Source: an uncultured Nitrososphaeraceae archaeon
Lineage (GTDB): Archaea; Thermoproteota; Nitrososphaeria; Nitrososphaerales; Nitrososphaeraceae
DNA length: 64,000 nt
Direction: 5' to 3'
NCBI GenBank assembly: GCA_963729045.1
Contig: CAVSMN010000020.1
Coordinates: forward strand, 96,001 to 160,000
This document shows, piece after piece, positions 15,214-31,721 of this stretch (position 1 is its first letter; every line of letters starts with the position of its first letter). The translations under genes and the position numbers were made by a program. Under the pieces are notes generated by a model, which made no database searches, had not been told where the DNA came from, and saw only the letters and a program-made list of their open reading frames with translations.

Positions 15214-15552
15214 TCATTCTATATCTTGTTTCAACTTTGCAAGCAAGTCTATGGCATCCACCGAAAATTTGGTTATCCAGCGATCATGTAATTCTCGAAT
15301 AGGAAGAAGATTAATGTAATTCCATCGGTATTTTCCACTATGTTTAACTATAATCAAATCAGCCTTTTCTAAGACGTTCAAATGTTGCATTACCGTACAT
15401 CTATCCATTTTTTTTAAGATTAGACACAATTCTGAGGTAGTATGTGGTTTATCCTTAATCAAATCAAGGATTTCACGTCTGCCAGCATGACCCAGTGCCT
15501 TAAGAATGTGGTCATACTCACTCTCTGAATACATGTTACATTTATATAACAT
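15214..15552 (-). CDS. ArsR/SmtB-family transcriptional regulator
   Basis: LKALGHAGRREILDLI…TTSEL…DRCTVMQHLNVLEKADLI wHTH. Likely start at ATG 15534. Confidence 0.9.
   Translation of the reverse strand: MLYKCNMYSESEYDHILKALGHAGRREILDLIKDKPHTTSELCLILKKMDRCTVMQHLNVLEKADLIIVKHSGKYRWNYINLLPIRELHDRWITKFSVDAIDLLAKLKQDIE
15533..15552. promoter_or_regulatory. Candidate ArsR operator ATGTTA-N8-TAACAT overlapping a TATA-like TTTATATA
   Basis: Inverted repeat atgttacatttatataacat in the very short divergent spacer between the ArsR and SRPBCC genes. Confidence 0.55.
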
Positions 15553-15586: not shown

Positions 15587-16030
15587 ATGAATTTGAAATT
15601 TAGAGTGCAAGCCAAGATAAAAAAGCCTGTCGAGGAAGTATATGACGCAGTCTACGATCCAAAGAAATTAAGCAAATATTTTACTACAGGTGGAGCAAGT
15701 GGACCACTCGATGAAGGAATGGAGGTCATGTGGGATTTTCATGATTATCCTGGTGCTTTTTCAGTATATGTAAAACAGACAATTAAGAACCAGAAAATCG
15801 TTTTTGAATGGGCCAGTGCAGTAGAATCTAATCGCTTGACAGTAGAGATGGACTTTGAACGACTTGGAGATGACATGACGCTAGTAACGATTTCAGAGGC
15901 AGGCTGGATAAATGAAGACCAGCCATCATTAGATGAATCATATAGTAACTGCCAAGGTTGGACTCAAATGGTTTGTTGCTTAAAGGTATATTTGGAATAT
16001 AATAAGAATTTAAGGGAGTTCTTTTATTGA
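15587..16030 (+). CDS. SRPBCC/AHSA1 (START-like) domain protein
   Basis: IKKPVEEVYDAVYDPKKLSKYF…W…TLVTISEAGW…CQGWTQMVCCLKVYLE. Confidence 0.88.
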   Translation: MNLKFRVQAKIKKPVEEVYDAVYDPKKLSKYFTTGGASGPLDEGMEVMWDFHDYPGAFSVYVKQTIKNQKIVFEWASAVESNRLTVEMDFERLGDDMTLVTISEAGWINEDQPSLDESYSNCQGWTQMVCCLKVYLEYNKNLREFFY

Positions 16031-17646: not shown

Positions 17647-18510
17647 TTGCAAATGACAAAGTTATTGTTACCACAATATGAATCTAACAACTATGGGAAC
17701 CTTCAAAACTATGCGGAACTTCTTCACTCCGGTCATAAAATTCAAGAAGAGACAACTAATTTAAAAATATGTTATAATTACTTTTCATTAAATTCAAAAC
17801 AGAAAACGGACCCTCATATAGATAATGAGAAGATTACGATAGCTATCAATGATATTCGTAATAACGATAAGAAAATTCTATCATTGCTACGAAAAGAAAT
17901 GTGGTCAACATATTCATTTAAAGCTCTCGAGAGAAAACTTGATATTCATCAACAAAGTCTTTCAAGGGCTTTAAAGAGACTTTTGGACTTGAACCTAATT
18001 GAGAAAACATCATCAGGGTACAAGTTGGTTGAAAGAAATGGGTATAACTTCAATCCAATATTAGAAGATAATCTTTTAAATGAAGAGCCAGAAAAAGATA
18101 AATCAAAAATACATAGAAAATATAATCAATTAATCCAGATCTATATGCATGTAAAGGGTAACATCGAACCCATAGTGGATCATTTAACCGGAAAATGGTT
18201 TGGCAATTTAAGATGGTTCGGCTTGATAAAAAAAGAAACAGGTTTTAGACTTCAATGGATAGTAGTAGATAAACACAGCAACAATAAAATATTTCAGATT
18301 AATGTAAGTATTTTATCAGAATATATTATTGTAGAGTCCAATGCCTTTTCTGAAAGTGAGAAGGTGGAAGCTATGTATTACTCAAATAGGATAATTGAGG
18401 AAATAATAAAAATTCTGCAAGAGAACTTACTTGAAAAAGTTATACCAGAAAAGGAATACACTCCTGTTTACACTAATGACATAAAATTTTCGCATAATAG
18501 GAATAATTGA
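17647..18510 (+). CDS. Winged-helix DNA-binding domain protein
   Basis: YSFKALERKLDIHQQSLSRALKRLLDLNLIEK wHTH followed by an alpha/beta C-terminal domain. Confidence 0.75.
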   Translation: MQMTKLLLPQYESNNYGNLQNYAELLHSGHKIQEETTNLKICYNYFSLNSKQKTDPHIDNEKITIAINDIRNNDKKILSLLRKEMWSTYSFKALERKLDIHQQSLSRALKRLLDLNLIEKTSSGYKLVERNGYNFNPILEDNLLNEEPEKDKSKIHRKYNQLIQIYMHVKGNIEPIVDHLTGKWFGNLRWFGLIKKETGFRLQWIVVDKHSNNKIFQINVSILSEYIIVESNAFSESEKVEAMYYSNRIIEEIIKILQENLLEKVIPEKEYTPVYTNDIKFSHNRNN

Positions 18511-18718: not shown

Positions 18719-19411
18719 TTAGAGTTCCTGTCTTAATTTTGTAAATCCTTGTGACGTAACTATCCCCGACTCAACCACCGGTTTTTCTCCGATTGCTTTT
18801 TCTATAGCTTCATTTGACAATTTCAAAGCCTGTTCAATATTCATATTTGTGTCATAGCCTTTTTGAATCACATCTAGTGCCACATCGGAAGAGTGACCTA
18901 TTGCAAACCCACCTCCTTTCAAATAAGTTCCACTGGGGTCAACTCGGTACAAATGTATTCCATTTTCATCTACTCCAGCAATGATTATTGAAGCCGCTTG
19001 CGGTCTTACAGCATAAATTGTGTAATTGTGTAAATAGGTACTTAGATGTTTTGTGATAGATCTTATGTCGATAGAGCTATCATATGAAATGCGATGTTTC
19101 TGTCCTTGCAACCTTATTTCTTCTATTAAATGTTCTATATCTGCAATATAGCCTGCTCCAGTCGCTCCTATGTGCTTATCAATTACAAATATTTTTTCAT
19201 TAGGATCTACTAAGGGCAAAGTGGGTTTGATATGACTTGAAATGAGGGCGAATTCTGGAGTTTTTAACCCAATAGTTGTTGAACCCTTATTTACCGCCTC
19301 TAGAGCATTATCTACTAACACCAGGCGACCACCTTGTCCATAGTAGTATGGATATCTACTGTTATTCCCAAAACTATAAGGAGAACCTGCAGAATTATTA
19401 TCTTCAGACAT
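18719..19411 (-). CDS. psmA: 20S proteasome alpha-type subunit, divergent paralogue
   Basis: GRL…ALEAVNKGSTTIG, EKIFVIDKHIG…G..AD, VRP…IIIAGVD…LYRVDPSG…AIG. N-terminal YDR gate motif absent. Confidence 0.88.
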   Translation of the reverse strand: MSEDNNSAGSPYSFGNNSRYPYYYGQGGRLVLVDNALEAVNKGSTTIGLKTPEFALISSHIKPTLPLVDPNEKIFVIDKHIGATGAGYIADIEHLIEEIRLQGQKHRISYDSSIDIRSITKHLSTYLHNYTIYAVRPQAASIIIAGVDENGIHLYRVDPSGTYLKGGGFAIGHSSDVALDVIQKGYDTNMNIEQALKLSNEAIEKAIGEKPVVESGIVTSQGFTKLRQEL

Positions 19412-19432
19412 TTTCTGTTATCTTCCTACCCC

Positions 19433-20014
19433 TTATACTACAACCCGTTCGGCTGCTACCAATTTTGGTATGACTAGGACATCTATTCCATTGCCAGAAC
19501 CTGGGTCCCGTTCCATAGCCGCTGCAACAGCTTTTTTAGCAATTTCCTTTGCTTCGTCGTTTGTGATATCAAAATGGTAAAGGCTTTCAAGCACTCCATA
19601 AGCTATGGGGGCTCCCGAACCTGATGCAGCATAATCTTCATTTGTAATCGCACCACTCATATCTGCAACATTTACATGTGATCCGCTGGTATCTACACCT
19701 GCTACTAGTAACTCGACGTAATATGGTTGGTAATTCTTTAGCCCCGAGTAGGCGAGATTTGCGATTAGTCTTGAAGATTCTTTTACACTCAATGGAAATC
19801 CCCTCCTTAGTTCTATCAATTTTCTCTCCGCTGCAGTAACTTTGATTAAATGTTCTGCATCGGATAACTGTCCTGCAATAGCAATTGCAAGAGTATCATC
19901 TATTTTGGAAATCTTTTGTACTATCTTGGATCCTATAAAGAAACCCTTACTGGCTCGTTTATCGGATGCAAGTACCACTCCCTCGGTTGTTTTAATTCCT
20001 ATTATGGTAGTCAT
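19433..20014 (-). CDS. psmB: 20S proteasome beta-type subunit without propeptide
   Basis: M-TTIIG; Thr1, Asp17 and Lys33 in exact register; SGSG; RDPGSG. Start ATG at 20014 preferred over TTG at 20056. Confidence 0.92.
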   Translation of the reverse strand: MTTIIGIKTTEGVVLASDKRASKGFFIGSKIVQKISKIDDTLAIAIAGQLSDAEHLIKVTAAERKLIELRRGFPLSVKESSRLIANLAYSGLKNYQPYYVELLVAGVDTSGSHVNVADMSGAITNEDYAASGSGAPIAYGVLESLYHFDITNDEAKEIAKKAVAAAMERDPGSGNGIDVLVIPKLVAAERVVV

Positions 20015-20402
20015 TTTGTTATAGTAATATAGAGTATGGTCGAATTTATTGACCAAGTTCAGTTCAAATTAGTCACACTTTGACTTTATTTGTTATCAAG
20101 ATTTACTGAAAAGAACTGTAAGATTGAATTTATTGTATATCACACACCAGATACCTAAAAGGGCATCATTAGAGCTTATCAACAAATGTTTTTTCAAGCC
20201 ATTAACCATAATTTAGCAATTTATGCGTCATACCCGCCTATCAAACTAACAAATGTCTCCTGATGATGGACTAAGGAACACAATGTGTTAATATAATTAA
20301 ATAAAATACCAAAATACTGCAACGGGATTAACGAAAACCATTAAATGATAAATATTTCACAACAGGAAAAAAAATTAAGAGCGGATAGGATGGGTAGAAT
20401 AT

Positions 20403-20840
20403 TTAACACATTCTACCGGGTTTGCAATTACTGGGATCAAAGATATGATGTTTTTCGGTCCAGCTCTGATGATGACTGTGATGATCCGCATGATGAGGAT
20501 GAGTATGGGTCACGGTATGGGTATGGCCGTTGTGAGTAAAGAAGTGAGTATGTTCATCTAAATATTGACCATCGTTCTCTGTTGTAGTTTTACCGAGAAT
20601 ATCAGAAAGTTCCCCTATTATTGTAGTCAGTTGAGCGGTTGCGACTGTTGAATTACTACTTGATACAGTATTTTGTGCTTGGGTTAAATTTGCGATCAAT
20701 TCAGCAAGTACCTGGCTATTTTCTTGATTATTAGTTTGAGCAGAAACTTCATTGTTTAATGTCCACCCTCCAAAAGTTATGCCAAATGTTACAAAAAGCG
20801 CAGATATGATTGCTGATTTCAGGAAGATAATGTTCTTCAT
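20403..20840 (-). CDS. Secreted His-rich protein (putative metal-binding)
   Basis: Signal peptide; C-terminus EHTHFFTHNGHTHTVTHTHPHHADHHSHH…HHIFDPSNCKPGRMC. Confidence 0.75.
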   Translation of the reverse strand: MKNIIFLKSAIISALFVTFGITFGGWTLNNEVSAQTNNQENSQVLAELIANLTQAQNTVSSSNSTVATAQLTTIIGELSDILGKTTTENDGQYLDEHTHFFTHNGHTHTVTHTHPHHADHHSHHQSWTEKHHIFDPSNCKPGRMC

Positions 20841-25179: not shown

Positions 25180-26174
25180 TTAGTCTTGACTCAAATAATA
25201 GATCTCATTCTTGGTCGAAACAGTTAATCCAGTATGTGGACCACCTCCTATTGCATATATCTTATCATCATATGAAGCGACACCTAATCCGTGTCGAGCA
25301 GTGGGCATAGGCAATTCTTCACTCCAAGTATCAGTAGCCGGATCATAACGTTCATTATTATTAAACGTTCCTTGATTTTGCTCACCTCCCAATACATAAA
25401 TTGATCCATTTACTGATGTGGCCGCAATACCACTCCTTTTTGACGGCATGGGTTCGAGATCAGTAGTCCATTGATCCAAAACAGGATCATATTTCTCGTT
25501 TACATCTACGTTTACTAAAGAACCAGTAAGTCTACCCCCCATCACATAAATATTTCCATCAACTACTGCAGAAGCAGCATTATGCCGAGCAGTTGGCATA
25601 GGGGCAAGTAAGGTCCATTGTTCAGTTAGTTGGTCGTACCCCTCAACATTACGAGAGAATGATCGTAACTATCCCCTCCAATTACATACAATATTCCATT
25701 AACGAAGTTTGCATTTGGCGAACCTCTGGTGTAGGCATAGGATTACCAAAAGTCCAATTGTTGGTAGCAGGATCATAAATTAACAGGTTGTTACTAGGGA
25801 TCCAATTCCCTGTATATCCCCCAACCAAATAAATCTTACCCCCATAGAGGGCTGCAGAAGCATGGTGAAGAGGTAAAGGTAACGACTTTATGTTTTGAAC
25901 CCAGGTATTATCAGTGGAATTGTACATTTCGACAATGTCTGTAATTTTACCGTCTAAAGTAAAACCACCTATCACATAAACTGCCTCTTCCAAATTAGCC
26001 GCTATTACCTCGGTTCTTGGATTTGGTAAAGCTGCACCCTCCATCCAAATAGATTCTACAGAGGGAGCCGGTGCTGCGAAAGAGGCATTGAATATACAAA
26101 ACCAAAAAAACTGCGACAAAAAAGATCGACAAGATATAAACAGAACGTAGAATAGGTGTAAGAAAAAGTTTCAT
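25180..26174 (-). CDS. Secreted Kelch-repeat protein; two frameshifts
   Basis: Repeated YVIGG…YDP…W…PMPTAR Kelch blades across ORFs 25682-26119 and 25180-25599; signal-peptide-like start MKLFLTPIL at 26174. Confidence 0.85.
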
Positions 26175-26785: not shown

Positions 26786-28004
26786 ATGAGGTTAGATTTT
26801 CCACCTAAATATACTGAAACTATAGGTGCTGTAAAGATTCACTCACTTCAAAAAATATATGAAATAGATTCCGGGTATAATTTTGGTACCACTTCGCAGG
26901 AACTTTAACAGGTCGACCATAGCATTTGACAGTAACACATTATCAAAGATATTTCAAGCCATGGCAGTAGTGATTCCAGTTAAGGATGAAAAATTGAGTC
27001 TTTTGGAAGGTGTTTTAAGCGGTATTCCTAACGAATGTCTAATAATCATAGTATCAAACAGTCAAAGACATCCCGTTGATAGATATGCTATGGAAGTAGA
27101 AATGGTTAAGCAGTATTCTCTGTTTTCAAATAAAAGGATTATCACAATACATCAAACGGATCCCAACCTTAGTAGAATTTTCCACAAGATTAATTACCCT
27201 TCAATTTTGGATCACAATAACCAAGTTCGTCAAGGCAAAGCAGAAGGAATGATAATTGGGATTTTGTTATCCAAATTGCTTAAGAAAGAGTATGTAGGGT
27301 TTGTAGACAGTGACAATTATTTTCCCGGAGCAGTAAATGAGTACATCAAGATTTTTGCATCGGGTTTTGCTATGTCGAATTCTCCTTTGTGTAATGTAAG
27401 AATATGCTGGCATTCTAAACCAAAAATAGCAAACAACAAAGTATATTTTCCGAAATGGGGAAGAATATCTGAACACAGTAACAAATACCTAAATGACTTG
27501 ATCTCATATATTACCGGATATGAGAGAGATATTATTACTACAGGAAATGCTGGAGAACACTCACTTTCTATGTCGCTTGCAGAAAACTTAGAATTCTCTA
27601 GTGGATATTCAGTAGAACCATATGAACTAATTAATATTTTAGAAAAATATGGAGGCATTATTTCCAATAAATCATTTGACATCGGACAGCATGGCGTAGA
27701 AATATTTCAGGTTGAAACAAGAAACCCCCACTTCCATGAAAATAAAGGAAATGAACATATTCAAGGAATGCTTCAAGAGTCCCTTAATGTAATTAATAAT
27801 AGTAAAATTTGCAATACTGAAATTACTACAGATATAAAAAATCATTTACTCATGTTACAGCAAAAAGATAGTCTTAGTAATATCAAATCAAATAATCAAA
27901 TTATCTTGATGGATCCGATTAAGACTATTGAGATAGATAAATTTCATGATCTTGTTGTAGATAGTCCGAGGTTATTACAACAATTTAACATTGATGAAAA
28001 ATAG
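26786..28004 (+). CDS. mpgS: Mannosyl-3-phosphoglycerate synthase (GT55); frameshift near 26905
   Basis: N-terminus MRLDFPPKYTETIGAVKIHSLQKIYEIDSG at 26786; LLEGVLSGIP, GKAEGM, GFVDSDNYFPG, WGRISE, GNAGEH, GYSVEP, ETRNPHFHE. Confidence 0.9.
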
Positions 28005-30770: not shown

Positions 30771-31721
30771 ATGAATTCTATGTCTTCATCATTATCAGGT
30801 AGTAGTGAAACTGCGACCACAACTCCGATTACGACAAAAATTATCACTATTGCAGACTTAAATAACTTAAAAAAAGACCGAACAATTCTTATTGCTGGAT
30901 TTCCAGGGCCTGGACTAGTCGGTTCAATTAGTACAAGCTATATAATTGACAAATTAGAAATGTATCAGATTGCATTTGTAGAATCCCATTATATATCTCC
31001 CGGAGTAATATTTATTGATGGTAAGTTAAGGCATCCATTTAGGCTATATGCAAACAAAGAAGGAAATGTTTGCGTTTTGGTATGCGAAGCGCCTATAATG
31101 ATGGATGGTATACATTTTGTTCTAGATGCAGTAATGGATTGGGCGATGAAAAATTCAATAGAAGAAGTGATGGTTTTAGATGGAATTCCTGTTCAAGGCA
31201 TACCTGATTCTGATAGAAAAACAGTGATTTTGGCAAGCGAGAATATGGAACAGAATACAAATAAAGAAATTGAAGATACAGATAATGAAGTAAAAAAAGA
31301 CAAGGGAAGTGAAACCGAATATGCCTTGGATGATGGATCTAACCCGCAAAGTAATTTCAATCGAAAAGCGATTGAAGATTCAACTAAGAAGTATACTACA
31401 TTCATAGGAGGTATTGCAGGCGGATTGTTGTCTGCTTGTTTATCTAATCAAATTCCATGCGCTGCAATTCTCATTCCATCTTCGAGCGGAATTCCTGATC
31501 CTGAAGGCGCCTCCCTATTGATTGAATCCTTTAATAATTTCATAAAAGACAATAAACTAAAGATTGAGACAAGTCAATTGAGAGAACAAGGACAAAAATT
31601 GAAGAAACAATTAGAACAAATTATCAAAGCTGAACAGGAACAGCGTGCTGCTGGAGTAGGAGGAGGAGGAGGAGGACCAGAAGATGGGAACGTTCCAAGT
31701 CATCGATTGATGTATGGGTAA
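30771..31721 (+). CDS. PAC2-family proteasome assembly chaperone/activator (PbaB-like) with C-terminal HbYX
   Basis: IAGFPGPGLVGSI, HPFRLY, GGIAGGLLS, IPDPEGA; ends …RLMYG. Confidence 0.88.
   Translation: MNSMSSSLSGSSETATTTPITTKIITIADLNNLKKDRTILIAGFPGPGLVGSISTSYIIDKLEMYQIAFVESHYISPGVIFIDGKLRHPFRLYANKEGNVCVLVCEAPIMMDGIHFVLDAVMDWAMKNSIEEVMVLDGIPVQGIPDSDRKTVILASENMEQNTNKEIEDTDNEVKKDKGSETEYALDDGSNPQSNFNRKAIEDSTKKYTTFIGGIAGGLLSACLSNQIPCAAILIPSSSGIPDPEGASLLIESFNNFIKDNKLKIETSQLREQGQKLKKQLEQIIKAEQEQRAAGVGGGGGGPEDGNVPSHRLMYG

Follow-up and report, generated by a model that had tools for sequence, protein, structure and literature searches.

Extra alpha and beta paralogues of the 20S proteasome core are already known in archaea, as the available part of PMC13022661 reports, and such additional subunits are considered there to yield different particles when conditions change. 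According to the accessible text of PMC8665760, the propeptides of archaeal beta subunits have no known function. The portion of PMC3493965 at hand terms Pro17 and Gly19 invariant in archaeal alpha subunits and argues from this for a universal mechanism of activation. Here we analyze a stretch of 64,000 nucleotides (hereafter the window) from an uncultured Nitrososphaeraceae archaeon of the soil ammonia oxidizers, positions 96,001 to 160,000 of contig CAVSMN010000020.1 in assembly GCA_963729045.1. It carries two proteasome genes, named α' and β' below, in tandem next to a winged-helix gene. Few soil microbes are as abundant as ammonia-oxidizing archaea, and to our knowledge their regulation of protein turnover has not been described. 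On balance, we lean towards a model in which the three genes together constitute an ancient module for an alternative 20S core under separate regulation; the predicted α'/β' particle would exist beside the canonical one. The parts of the locus are as follows.

19433 to 20014, minus strand: β', proteasome subunit of 193 aa plus stop, read from ATG-ACT-ACC (M-T-T); PF00227.
18719 to 19411, minus strand: α', divergent proteasome subunit of 230 aa plus stop; PF00227.
19412 to 19432, minus strand: 21-nt spacer from the β' stop to the α' start (operon junction).
20044 to 20076, minus strand: promoter-like block upstream of β', with the TTGGTCAATAAAT box at 20044-20056 and GTGAC at 20072-20076.
17653 to 18510, plus strand: winged-helix third member, convergent to and downstream of α'; its frame opens at TTG 17647 and its first ATG is at 17653.

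A PF00227 profile scan of the whole genome (22 contigs, 87% complete) gives eight matches. These include one canonical alpha with the YDR motif (C12:233555-234310), a canonical beta with a propeptide and Gly-1 directly before Thr1 (C1:32865-33527; ..KKG-TTT..) and a second canonical beta with Ala at the Thr1 position (C14:63178-63777). The other matches are the window pair, a near-identical pair on contig C22 and a weak homologue on C10. An earlier reading of the DNA, made from the sequence only, had proposed that the window holds a second pair beside canonical psmA and psmB, and the scan bears this out: the window genes are not the only alpha and beta genes of the genome. Identity to the canonical proteins is low, with α' 36% identical to the genome's own canonical alpha and β' 36% and 31% identical to its two betas. 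Contig C22 (23.7 kb) is over its entire length an 87-99% identical copy of window positions 6952-30617 (G000:C20:102952-126617), and stems either from strain variation within the assembly or from a recent segmental duplication. In this copy the β' gene contains two 1-nt insertions, 52 nt apart, while α' is intact and the winged-helix gene is present. The homologue on C10 (C10:130906-131709, plus strand; locus L008) is a third kind of proteasome-like protein, about 258 aa long, with M-T-T-V-I-S-I-K at its start, a PF00227 score of 61 bits and 27% identity to β'; it may belong to a distant homologue family catalogued in the part of PMC8665760 available.

By sequence, β' is an ordinary archaeal beta subunit and α' its divergent partner, because β' scores near the canonical betas and α' at half the family cut-off. 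β' matches PF00227 with 161 bits (E 3.3e-47) over residues 2-182 and reaches 205.7 bits on the archaeal beta model TIGR03634, below a cut-off of 224 that the canonical betas of the genome (218.5 and 217.6 bits) likewise miss. The pair falls short of the bacterial 20S models as well, with 71.5 bits against 191.9 for TIGR03690 and 15.9 bits against 139.05 for TIGR03691. α' matches PF00227 with 136.7 bits (E 9.6e-40) over residues 40-215, leaving about 40 residues ahead of the domain. On the alpha model TIGR03633 it scores 147.6 bits, about half the cut-off of 287.35 that the canonical alpha passes with 290.3, and on the beta model 91.3 bits. It thus combines an alpha-type domain with an N-terminal extension and has no free Thr1, and its closest relatives of solved structure are proteasome alpha chains (E 1e-28 to 1e-30).

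These scores make it improbable that the two proteins build something other than a 20S core, such as an HslV- or Anbu-like homo-oligomer of β' with α' in an accessory or scaffolding role. HslV matures from an M-T-T start of this kind, the N-terminus of β' resembles that of HslV, and the lone M-T-T homologue on C10 demonstrates that such proteins occur in this genome. However, β' obtains only 21.2 and 21.3 bits on the HslV models TIGR03692 and NF003964, whose cut-offs are 157.75 and 137, against its 205.7 bits on the archaeal beta model; α' is clearly alpha-type; and the strict pairing of β' with an alpha-type gene is what a particle of the two-ring type needs.

The N-terminus of β' reads M followed by TTIIGIKTTEGVVLASDKRASKGFFIGSKIVQK, with Thr1, Asp17 and Lys33 counted from the first Thr, and the protein also carries Gly47, ...SGSGAP... 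and ...ERDPGSGNG.... We take the beta catalytic set to be Thr1, Asp/Glu17, Lys33, Gly47, Ser129, Asp166 and Ser169. Related loci of the family number 30, of which 28 have a complete β' N-terminus (of the other two, one is truncated where its contig ends and the other was partly recovered). Across these 28 orthologues, whose alignment has a mean column identity of 84%, T2, D18, K34, G48, S131/S133, D170 and S173 (Met = 1) are invariant, so that the catalytic register and the SGSG and RD..SG motifs first read from the window alone hold throughout. All 28 begin (M/L)-T-T-I-(I/V)-G, and all 14 further orthologues from other families begin with M, L (TTG) or V (GTG) followed by T-T. The start codon therefore lies immediately before Thr1 in 42/42 complete orthologues, where an autolytically removed propeptide would have Gly-1.

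The frame of β' is open up to TTG 20056, and a start there would give 207 aa, with a 14-residue propeptide cleaved before Thr1. Database entries for β' are mostly of 193 aa, although some give 207 or 209 aa and so agree with the longer form. The surroundings of this codon make such a start very improbable. The in-frame sequence upstream of β' is not conserved among the 28 orthologues, and in six of them a stop codon lies close ahead of the start, at 0 codons in three loci, 1 in one and 2 in two. TTG 20056 falls within the TTGGTCAATAAAT box, whose distance to the ATG is 41, 42 or 45 nt and does not keep the frame, and one species of the genus has an in-frame TAA after the box. Furthermore, the longer reading places Met rather than Gly at position -1, and across the 44 genomes of the phylum that have β', every match except the broken C22 copy starts at query residue 1. 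The conserved M/L/V-T-T starts, the upstream stops and the position of TTG within a promoter-like box together indicate that β' has no propeptide and that TTG 20056 is not its start codon. Removal of Met1 alone would therefore expose Thr1; M24-family peptidases are encoded in the genome. The feature is not confined to β', since among the best 150 representative clusters eight outside the β' clade, scattered over the tree, also begin with M-T-T, which makes the archaeal beta propeptide usual, not universal.

The gate region of α' departs from the canonical pattern. Tyr8, Asp9, Pro17 and Tyr26 of canonical alphas stabilize the open gate, and Lys66 binds the hydrophobic-tyrosine-X (HbYX) tails of activators. 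We place these sites in α' by the numbering that we take to hold for Thermoplasma acidophilum. BLAST pairs G28 of α' with canonical G19, and extending this register upstream without gaps (offset 9) gives Y8>N17, D9>S18, R10=R19, P17>Q26, G19=G28 and Y26>N35. These are the substitutions already read from the window alone, and three of them are general: the equivalents of Tyr8, Asp9 and Tyr26 are lost in all 28 orthologues, while those of Arg10 and Gly19 are kept in all. The fourth, P17>Q, is present in the window and yet is a trait of its genus, where 6/6 sequences read GQGGRL; the other 22 of the 28 retain the proline in GP(E/G/Q)GRL. Likewise kept, as had been noted of the EKI motif, is K73 in (E/D)K(I/V)F (NEKIF here), invariant in 28/28, which corresponds to Lys66 of T. 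acidophilum, the lysine in the pocket that takes HbYX tails. The alignment of the 28 has 71 invariant columns, including R19, P21, Y24, G25, G28, R29, L30 and K73.

Where the canonical motif would be, window α' reads R-Y-P-Y-Y-Y-G-Q-G-G-R-L, and the consensus of the orthologues is R-Y-P-Y-Y-Y-G-P-(E/G/Q)-G-R-L-V-L-V-D-S-A-L-E-A-V. This motif is preceded by a variable Ser/Gly/Asn-rich tail of 8-21 residues that starts M-S/A/T-E. Loss of the gate residues suggests that gating in α' is altered.

The pair is inherited as a unit. β' lies directly upstream of α' on the same strand in 30/30 related loci of the family and in 14/14 loci fetched from families f2, f5, f19 and f21, making 44/44 loci inspected. 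The 21-nt spacer of the window agrees with the tandem arrangement at about 20 bp described previously and belongs to a class of 16-21 nt (7 of the 30 family loci), found in the window's genus and at a single locus outside it; 21 loci have gaps of -1 to 2 nt, and two have gaps of 166 or 238 nt. Flanking genes of the pair are not syntenic between genera. The description of the surroundings as an accessory region therefore fits the flanks, and the near-copy on C22, and fails for the module itself, which is ancient and conserved.

Within the window's family, α' occurs in 39 of the 61 genomes and in 11 of the 18 genera, and it was not found in the other 7 genera within those 61 genomes. Its matches have at least 59% identity (E <= 1.6e-82), against 33-40% for canonical alpha, which is present in all 61, and a clean identity gap separates the two. 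Among 201 genomes of the class, α' and β' occur in exactly the same 24, all from the window's order (families f1, f2, in two genera only, and f5). The 61- and 201-genome sets include one unpublished genome each (G035 and G190, respectively), on which no claim depends. In 401 genomes of the phylum, β' is found in 44, namely in the window's order, in 25/32 of family f19 and in 12/17 of family f21, and in no other family sampled. Identity to the window proteins is 66% for β' and 40-42% for α' in f21, and 55-60% and 35-40%, respectively, in f19. Species-representative genomes yield 258 confirmed relatives of α', among them Candidatus Nitrosocosmicus, Nitrososphaera, Candidatus Nitrosopolaris and metagenome-assembled genomes of Nitrosopumilaceae; databases name the homologues 'proteasome subunit alpha/beta' or 'hypothetical protein'. 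These 258 relatives, together with co-occurrence and synteny, exclude chance as an explanation of the pair.

Trees from quick IQ-TREE searches (LG+G4, with Shimodaira-Hasegawa-like approximate likelihood ratio test, SH-aLRT, support) place the pair in clades of its own. The β' clade has support of 97-99, and of 98 with distant lineages added; it takes in one further representative and excludes both canonical betas of the genome and 56 representatives. All second alphas group with support of 91 opposite 43 canonical alphas (94), and α' of the ammonia oxidizers (96) is sister to that of f21 (98). Long branches meet in the alpha tree, and the shared beta-then-alpha synteny provides an independent argument for a single origin. 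With clade support and conserved gene order in hand, the suggestion that the pair forms its own syntenic clade stands.

The distant families also order the changes in time. The second alpha of f19 keeps Pro17 and Tyr26 in all 5 loci, with G-Y-D-R as well in 3 of them, and that of f21 reads F-Y-G-P-E-G-R-M..L-V-D-R-A. Because the f19 alpha keeps canonical gate residues while that of f21 is already altered, these sequences indicate that the propeptide-less beta is the old trait and that the gate was remodeled later, on the branch to f21 and the ammonia oxidizers.

Co-inheritance bears directly on how the subunits are used. Instead of forming a particle of their own, α' and β' could replace some or all canonical subunits in a hybrid 20S, for instance as α' rings on canonical beta rings or in mixed rings, and so tune its gating and activity, as alternative subunits do in other archaea. 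Because one canonical beta is catalytically dead, with Ala at Thr1, mixed rings already occur in this lineage, where heteromeric rings would be the norm; intact α' beside broken β' on C22 also fits subunits that are used separately. Each of the 11 genomes sampled from family f2 that lack α' has two canonical-type alphas, 57-67% identical to the canonical alpha of the window genome, and G100, the one f2 genome with α' in the sample, has the complementary pattern of a single canonical alpha, which suggests that α' may take the role of a 'second alpha'. Perfect co-occurrence in the same 24 genomes and tight adjacency argue instead for a mutual requirement of the two proteins at equal stoichiometry, and both lie on long stems off the canonical clades, which is what drift of their shared interface away from the canonical one would produce. 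The strict co-inheritance and close coupling of these matched subunits thus favor a separate particle, and we regard replacement in a hybrid as a serious but clearly less probable alternative. Two canonical-type alphas are often found, too, in loci of genus g4 that have neither α' nor β' (L177-L179, L186).

Selection on both genes is strong. Relative to the nearest species (synonymous divergence, dS, 0.21-0.25), the ratio of nonsynonymous to synonymous substitution rates (dN/dS) is 0.009 for β' and 0.079 for α', and between the α' copies of C20 and C22 it is 0.056; only the closest pairs were used, since farther ones are saturated (dS >1.5 or undefined). A decaying or functionless duplicate might be suspected from the absence of the genes in 22/61 family genomes and from the broken β' of C22. 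These ratios, the invariant catalytic residues and conservation in three lineages of the phylum leave that idea hardly credible, and selection and conservation refute it for practical purposes. The module is real, conserved and functional, and its α' and β' genes are under strong purifying selection.

A third gene, not seen in the earlier reading, accompanies the pair. In f19 (3/3 loci examined), f21 (2/2), f5 (2/2) and one f2 genus, the position directly upstream of β' on the same strand is taken by a gene of 183-228 codons. Its product consists of a winged-helix domain (weak MarR, ArsR and HVO_A0261_N matches) and a C-terminal domain with the motif G-K/R-W-F..L/M-R-W-x-G......L-x-W. The window open reading frame (ORF) at 17647/17653-18510 is homologous to these genes over its full length and scores 27.4 bits on MarR_2, whose cut-off is 27. 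Thirty-two aligned members share F89, R94, L96, H99, Q100, R105, G122, Y123, W182, R187, W188, G190 and W202. Of 80 related loci, 49 have the gene. In 31 of these it shares the strand of the pair and precedes it; in 16, which all belong to the window's genus, it follows the pair on the other strand; the remaining two were unscored for position relative to α'. A profile of the family finds a member in 24/24 class genomes with the pair, and weaker matches in 8/177 without it. In an AlphaFold2 (AF2) model, the predicted local distance difference test (pLDDT) is 84-92 for the winged helix-turn-helix and 79-95 for the C-terminal domain. Model residues 62-150 align to MarR, ArsR and HxlR regulators (Z 9.4-11.2), those of MarR type at Z 10-11. 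Searches with the whole protein (Foldseek against PDB at E <= 0.001, VIA-align and ESM Atlas) gave no fold match to the C-terminal domain, the list of the wide VIA-align search being filled by winged-helix matches.

Upstream of β', a comparison of 15 loci of the genus with the window leaves a footprint in which TGTGAC and TTGGTCAAT(A/T)AAT are kept while the flanks diverge. The block contains the inverted repeat GTGAC-N18-GGTCA, the GGTCA part of which lies inside the TTGGTCAATAAAT box. AATAAAT in this box is probably a TATA box; it lies about 31-37 nt before the β' ATG, a spacing that would match an archaeal TATA position for a very short leader. Within the genome, the inverted repeat precedes a gene at β' and at the C22 copy only. 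The block may thus function as a promoter or operator, and the winged-helix protein is the candidate transcription factor of the module, with the repeat as its likely operator. A wider regulon was considered and rejected, as GTGAC-N17-27-GGTCAA lies upstream of a gene only at β' and its C22 copy. Copies of TTGGTCAATAAAT with one mismatch precede unrelated short ORFs, and inspection by eye of the 220 nt upstream of the five Cdc48 genes, a PAC2 gene and the canonical betas revealed no shared element.

The genome offers several possible partners. No PAN scores above cut-off, in agreement with the available part of PMC3493965, and five Cdc48 paralogues do. By the definition given in PMC3493965, two of these have C-termini of the HbYX type (..YYR, ..FYG), one ends in ..QYR and two have none. 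Two PAC2-family proteins are encoded, and the one in the window (30771-31718, plus strand) ends in ..LMYG, which fits the HbYX pattern. This PbaA/PbaB-like protein (PF09754, 116.8 bits) lies 11 kb from the pair, just beyond the stretch duplicated on C22; its linkage to the pair was not seen in other genera. Cdc48 copy number (1-6 per genome) is higher in genomes with the pair, but the size and fragmentation of the genomes confound this correlation, which was therefore dropped.

Both genes are matched, at 90-99% likeness, by contigs assembled from soil metatranscriptomes (four libraries from four studies), and RNA libraries may contain carried-over DNA. A 936-nt contig of X3 (19065-20000) bridges the β'/α' junction, which is no proof of a single transcript. 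Cover ends at 19972-20000 in 4/4 runs, with nothing on 20036-20400 and no loose ends in that part; as contigs cannot show RNA ends, this hints at most weakly at a start near the ATG and was not used as evidence. A complex prediction for α' with β' scored 0.04 against a mark of 0.32, was run without controls, and speaks neither for nor against binding.

Other genes of the region are of varied kinds. Directly upstream of β', 20406-20840 (minus strand) is a 145-aa ORF with a signal-like N-terminus, a His-rich tail (..HTHFFTHNGHTHTVTHTHPHHADHHSHH..) and no Pfam match, whose product may be a secreted metal-binding protein. Two adjacent short ORFs with Kelch repeats (25183-25599 and 25685-26119, both minus strand) look like one beta-propeller gene broken by a stop codon or frameshift. 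A divergent gene pair (15217-15552, minus strand, and 15587-16027, plus strand) consists of an ArsR-type regulator and an AHSA1/SRPBCC-family gene, and 26883-28001 (plus strand) encodes a mannosyl-3-phosphoglycerate synthase (466.7 bits), an enzyme of osmolyte synthesis. In Nitrososphaera-type loci (L070-L115), the flanks have a stress flavor, with a convergent HxlR-type regulator in 32/80, an HtrA-like trypsin-PDZ protease in 25/80, aIF1/SUI1 in 23/80, an NADPH-dependent FMN reductase in 18/80 and pirin in 12/80. As parts of the module these five were rejected, because they occur only in close relatives and are absent from the window.

The elements described above can be joined into a model for the alternative core. 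β' and α' would be produced from one transcript in equal amounts and assemble together as α'7 β'7 β'7 α'7, alongside the canonical 20S. Methionine aminopeptidase would remove Met1 of β' to leave Thr1 as the nucleophile, as in HslV, so that β' would mature without autocatalytic cleavage and its active site would be competent upon ring assembly. Lack of a propeptide need not be dangerous, because propeptide-less archaeal subunits are inactive until assembled, as the available text of PMC8665760 states. α' retains the activator-docking lysine and Gly19. With the residues that lock the open gate gone (Tyr8, Asp9 and Tyr26, and in the genus Pro17), and with a longer Ser/Gly/Asn-rich tail and the conserved Tyr-rich plug (RYPYYYG) in their place, the pore would be gated differently. 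Finally, the winged-helix protein probably binds GTGAC-N18-GGTCA, which overlaps the promoter, and would activate the operon in response to some condition. The steps that we infer are the choice of assembly partners, the removal of Met, the behavior of the gate, and the role and signal of the regulator.

Several observations weigh against this model. G245, a genome of the same genus that is 97% complete, has neither α' nor β', and the module is therefore dispensable. The altered gate is not a defining feature, since the f19 alpha retains the gate residues, and the AF2 model of α' (mean pLDDT 71, residues 1-39 below 50) is silent on the gate because its N-terminus is so poorly predicted. The winged-helix family is not exclusive to the module, because 8 of the 177 class genomes without the pair carry a member. 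Across genomes, the pair has no consistent linkage to a Cdc48, PAC2 or other partner gene. The broken β' beside an intact, constrained α' on C22 could be an assembly error or could mean that α' outlives β'. In addition, N-acetylation of an exposed propeptide-less Thr1 can inactivate it, as reported in yeast.

A bolder version of the alternative-core model, which we hold to be rather doubtful and somewhat less probable even than the hybrid particle, makes the module a distinct and ancient class of Thermoproteota core. This would be a sensor-controlled, 'born-mature' 20S without an autocatalytic checkpoint, used on demand and possibly served by a dedicated Cdc48. Its alpha ring would dispense with gate opening through Tyr8/Asp9/Pro17/Tyr26 and close the pore by a Tyr-rich plug. 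The triggers might be stress, starvation, or a metal or redox state for which the winged-helix protein would carry a sensor in its C-terminal domain. The beta-then-alpha order and the aromatic N-terminus of the alpha subunit could then reflect shared ancestry with the bacterial prcBA operon.

The full-text literature searched contains no description of the module; the supplementary cluster map of PMC8665760, the supplements of PMC3493965 and the whole review PMC3936409 lay outside its coverage. The proteasome-homologue survey PMC8665760, in the portion available, does not describe it and does not contain the words Thaumarchaeota or Nitroso-. The module offers a natural experiment on two questions raised in the accessible parts of these papers: the purpose of archaeal beta propeptides (PMC8665760) and the universality of the HbYX/Pro17/Tyr8-Asp9-Tyr26 gate mechanism, which was inferred in PMC3493965. 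Three genes, present in cultivable Nitrosocosmicus and Nitrososphaera, should be expressible in Escherichia coli as other archaeal proteasomes are, which makes these questions directly testable. The locus also indicates that recent duplication does not account for every second alpha or beta gene of TACK-type archaea, as here such genes belong to an old paralogous system with what appears to be its own regulator.

A comparison with known systems shows both likenesses to and differences from each of them. With HslV (bacterial ClpQ), β' shares a Thr1 right after the initiator Met, an arrangement in which Met removal suffices. In contrast to HslV, it is paired with an alpha-type subunit and scores 21 bits where the cut-offs are 137-158. 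The actinobacterial prcB-prcA genes share the beta-then-alpha order in one operon. They have pafBC transcription factors nearby, and the aromatic N-terminal segment of α' is reminiscent of what we take to be the mycobacterial alpha N-terminus. Both module proteins are of archaeal type, however, and actinobacterial betas have long propeptides. Two prcB-prcA pairs occur in Rhodococcus, according to the available part of PMC13022661.

Within the archaea, the canonical 20S (PsmA/PsmB; 1pma of Thermoplasma acidophilum) shares with the module the PF00227 fold family and the beta catalytic residues, as well as the N-terminal extension, Gly19 and activator-pocket lysine of its alpha subunit. It differs in that β' has no propeptide and no Gly-1, that α' has no Tyr8, Asp9 or Tyr26 (and in the genus no Pro17), and that the module is a beta-then-alpha operon with a dedicated winged-helix gene, additional to the canonical set. 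Alternative archaeal paralogues, such as those behind the two 20S forms of Haloferax volcanii in the accessible text of PMC13022661, resemble the module in providing extra core-particle subunits. Those paralogues are single and of canonical type, whereas the module is a matched pair, changed in its maturation and gate residues and inherited as a unit in three lineages.

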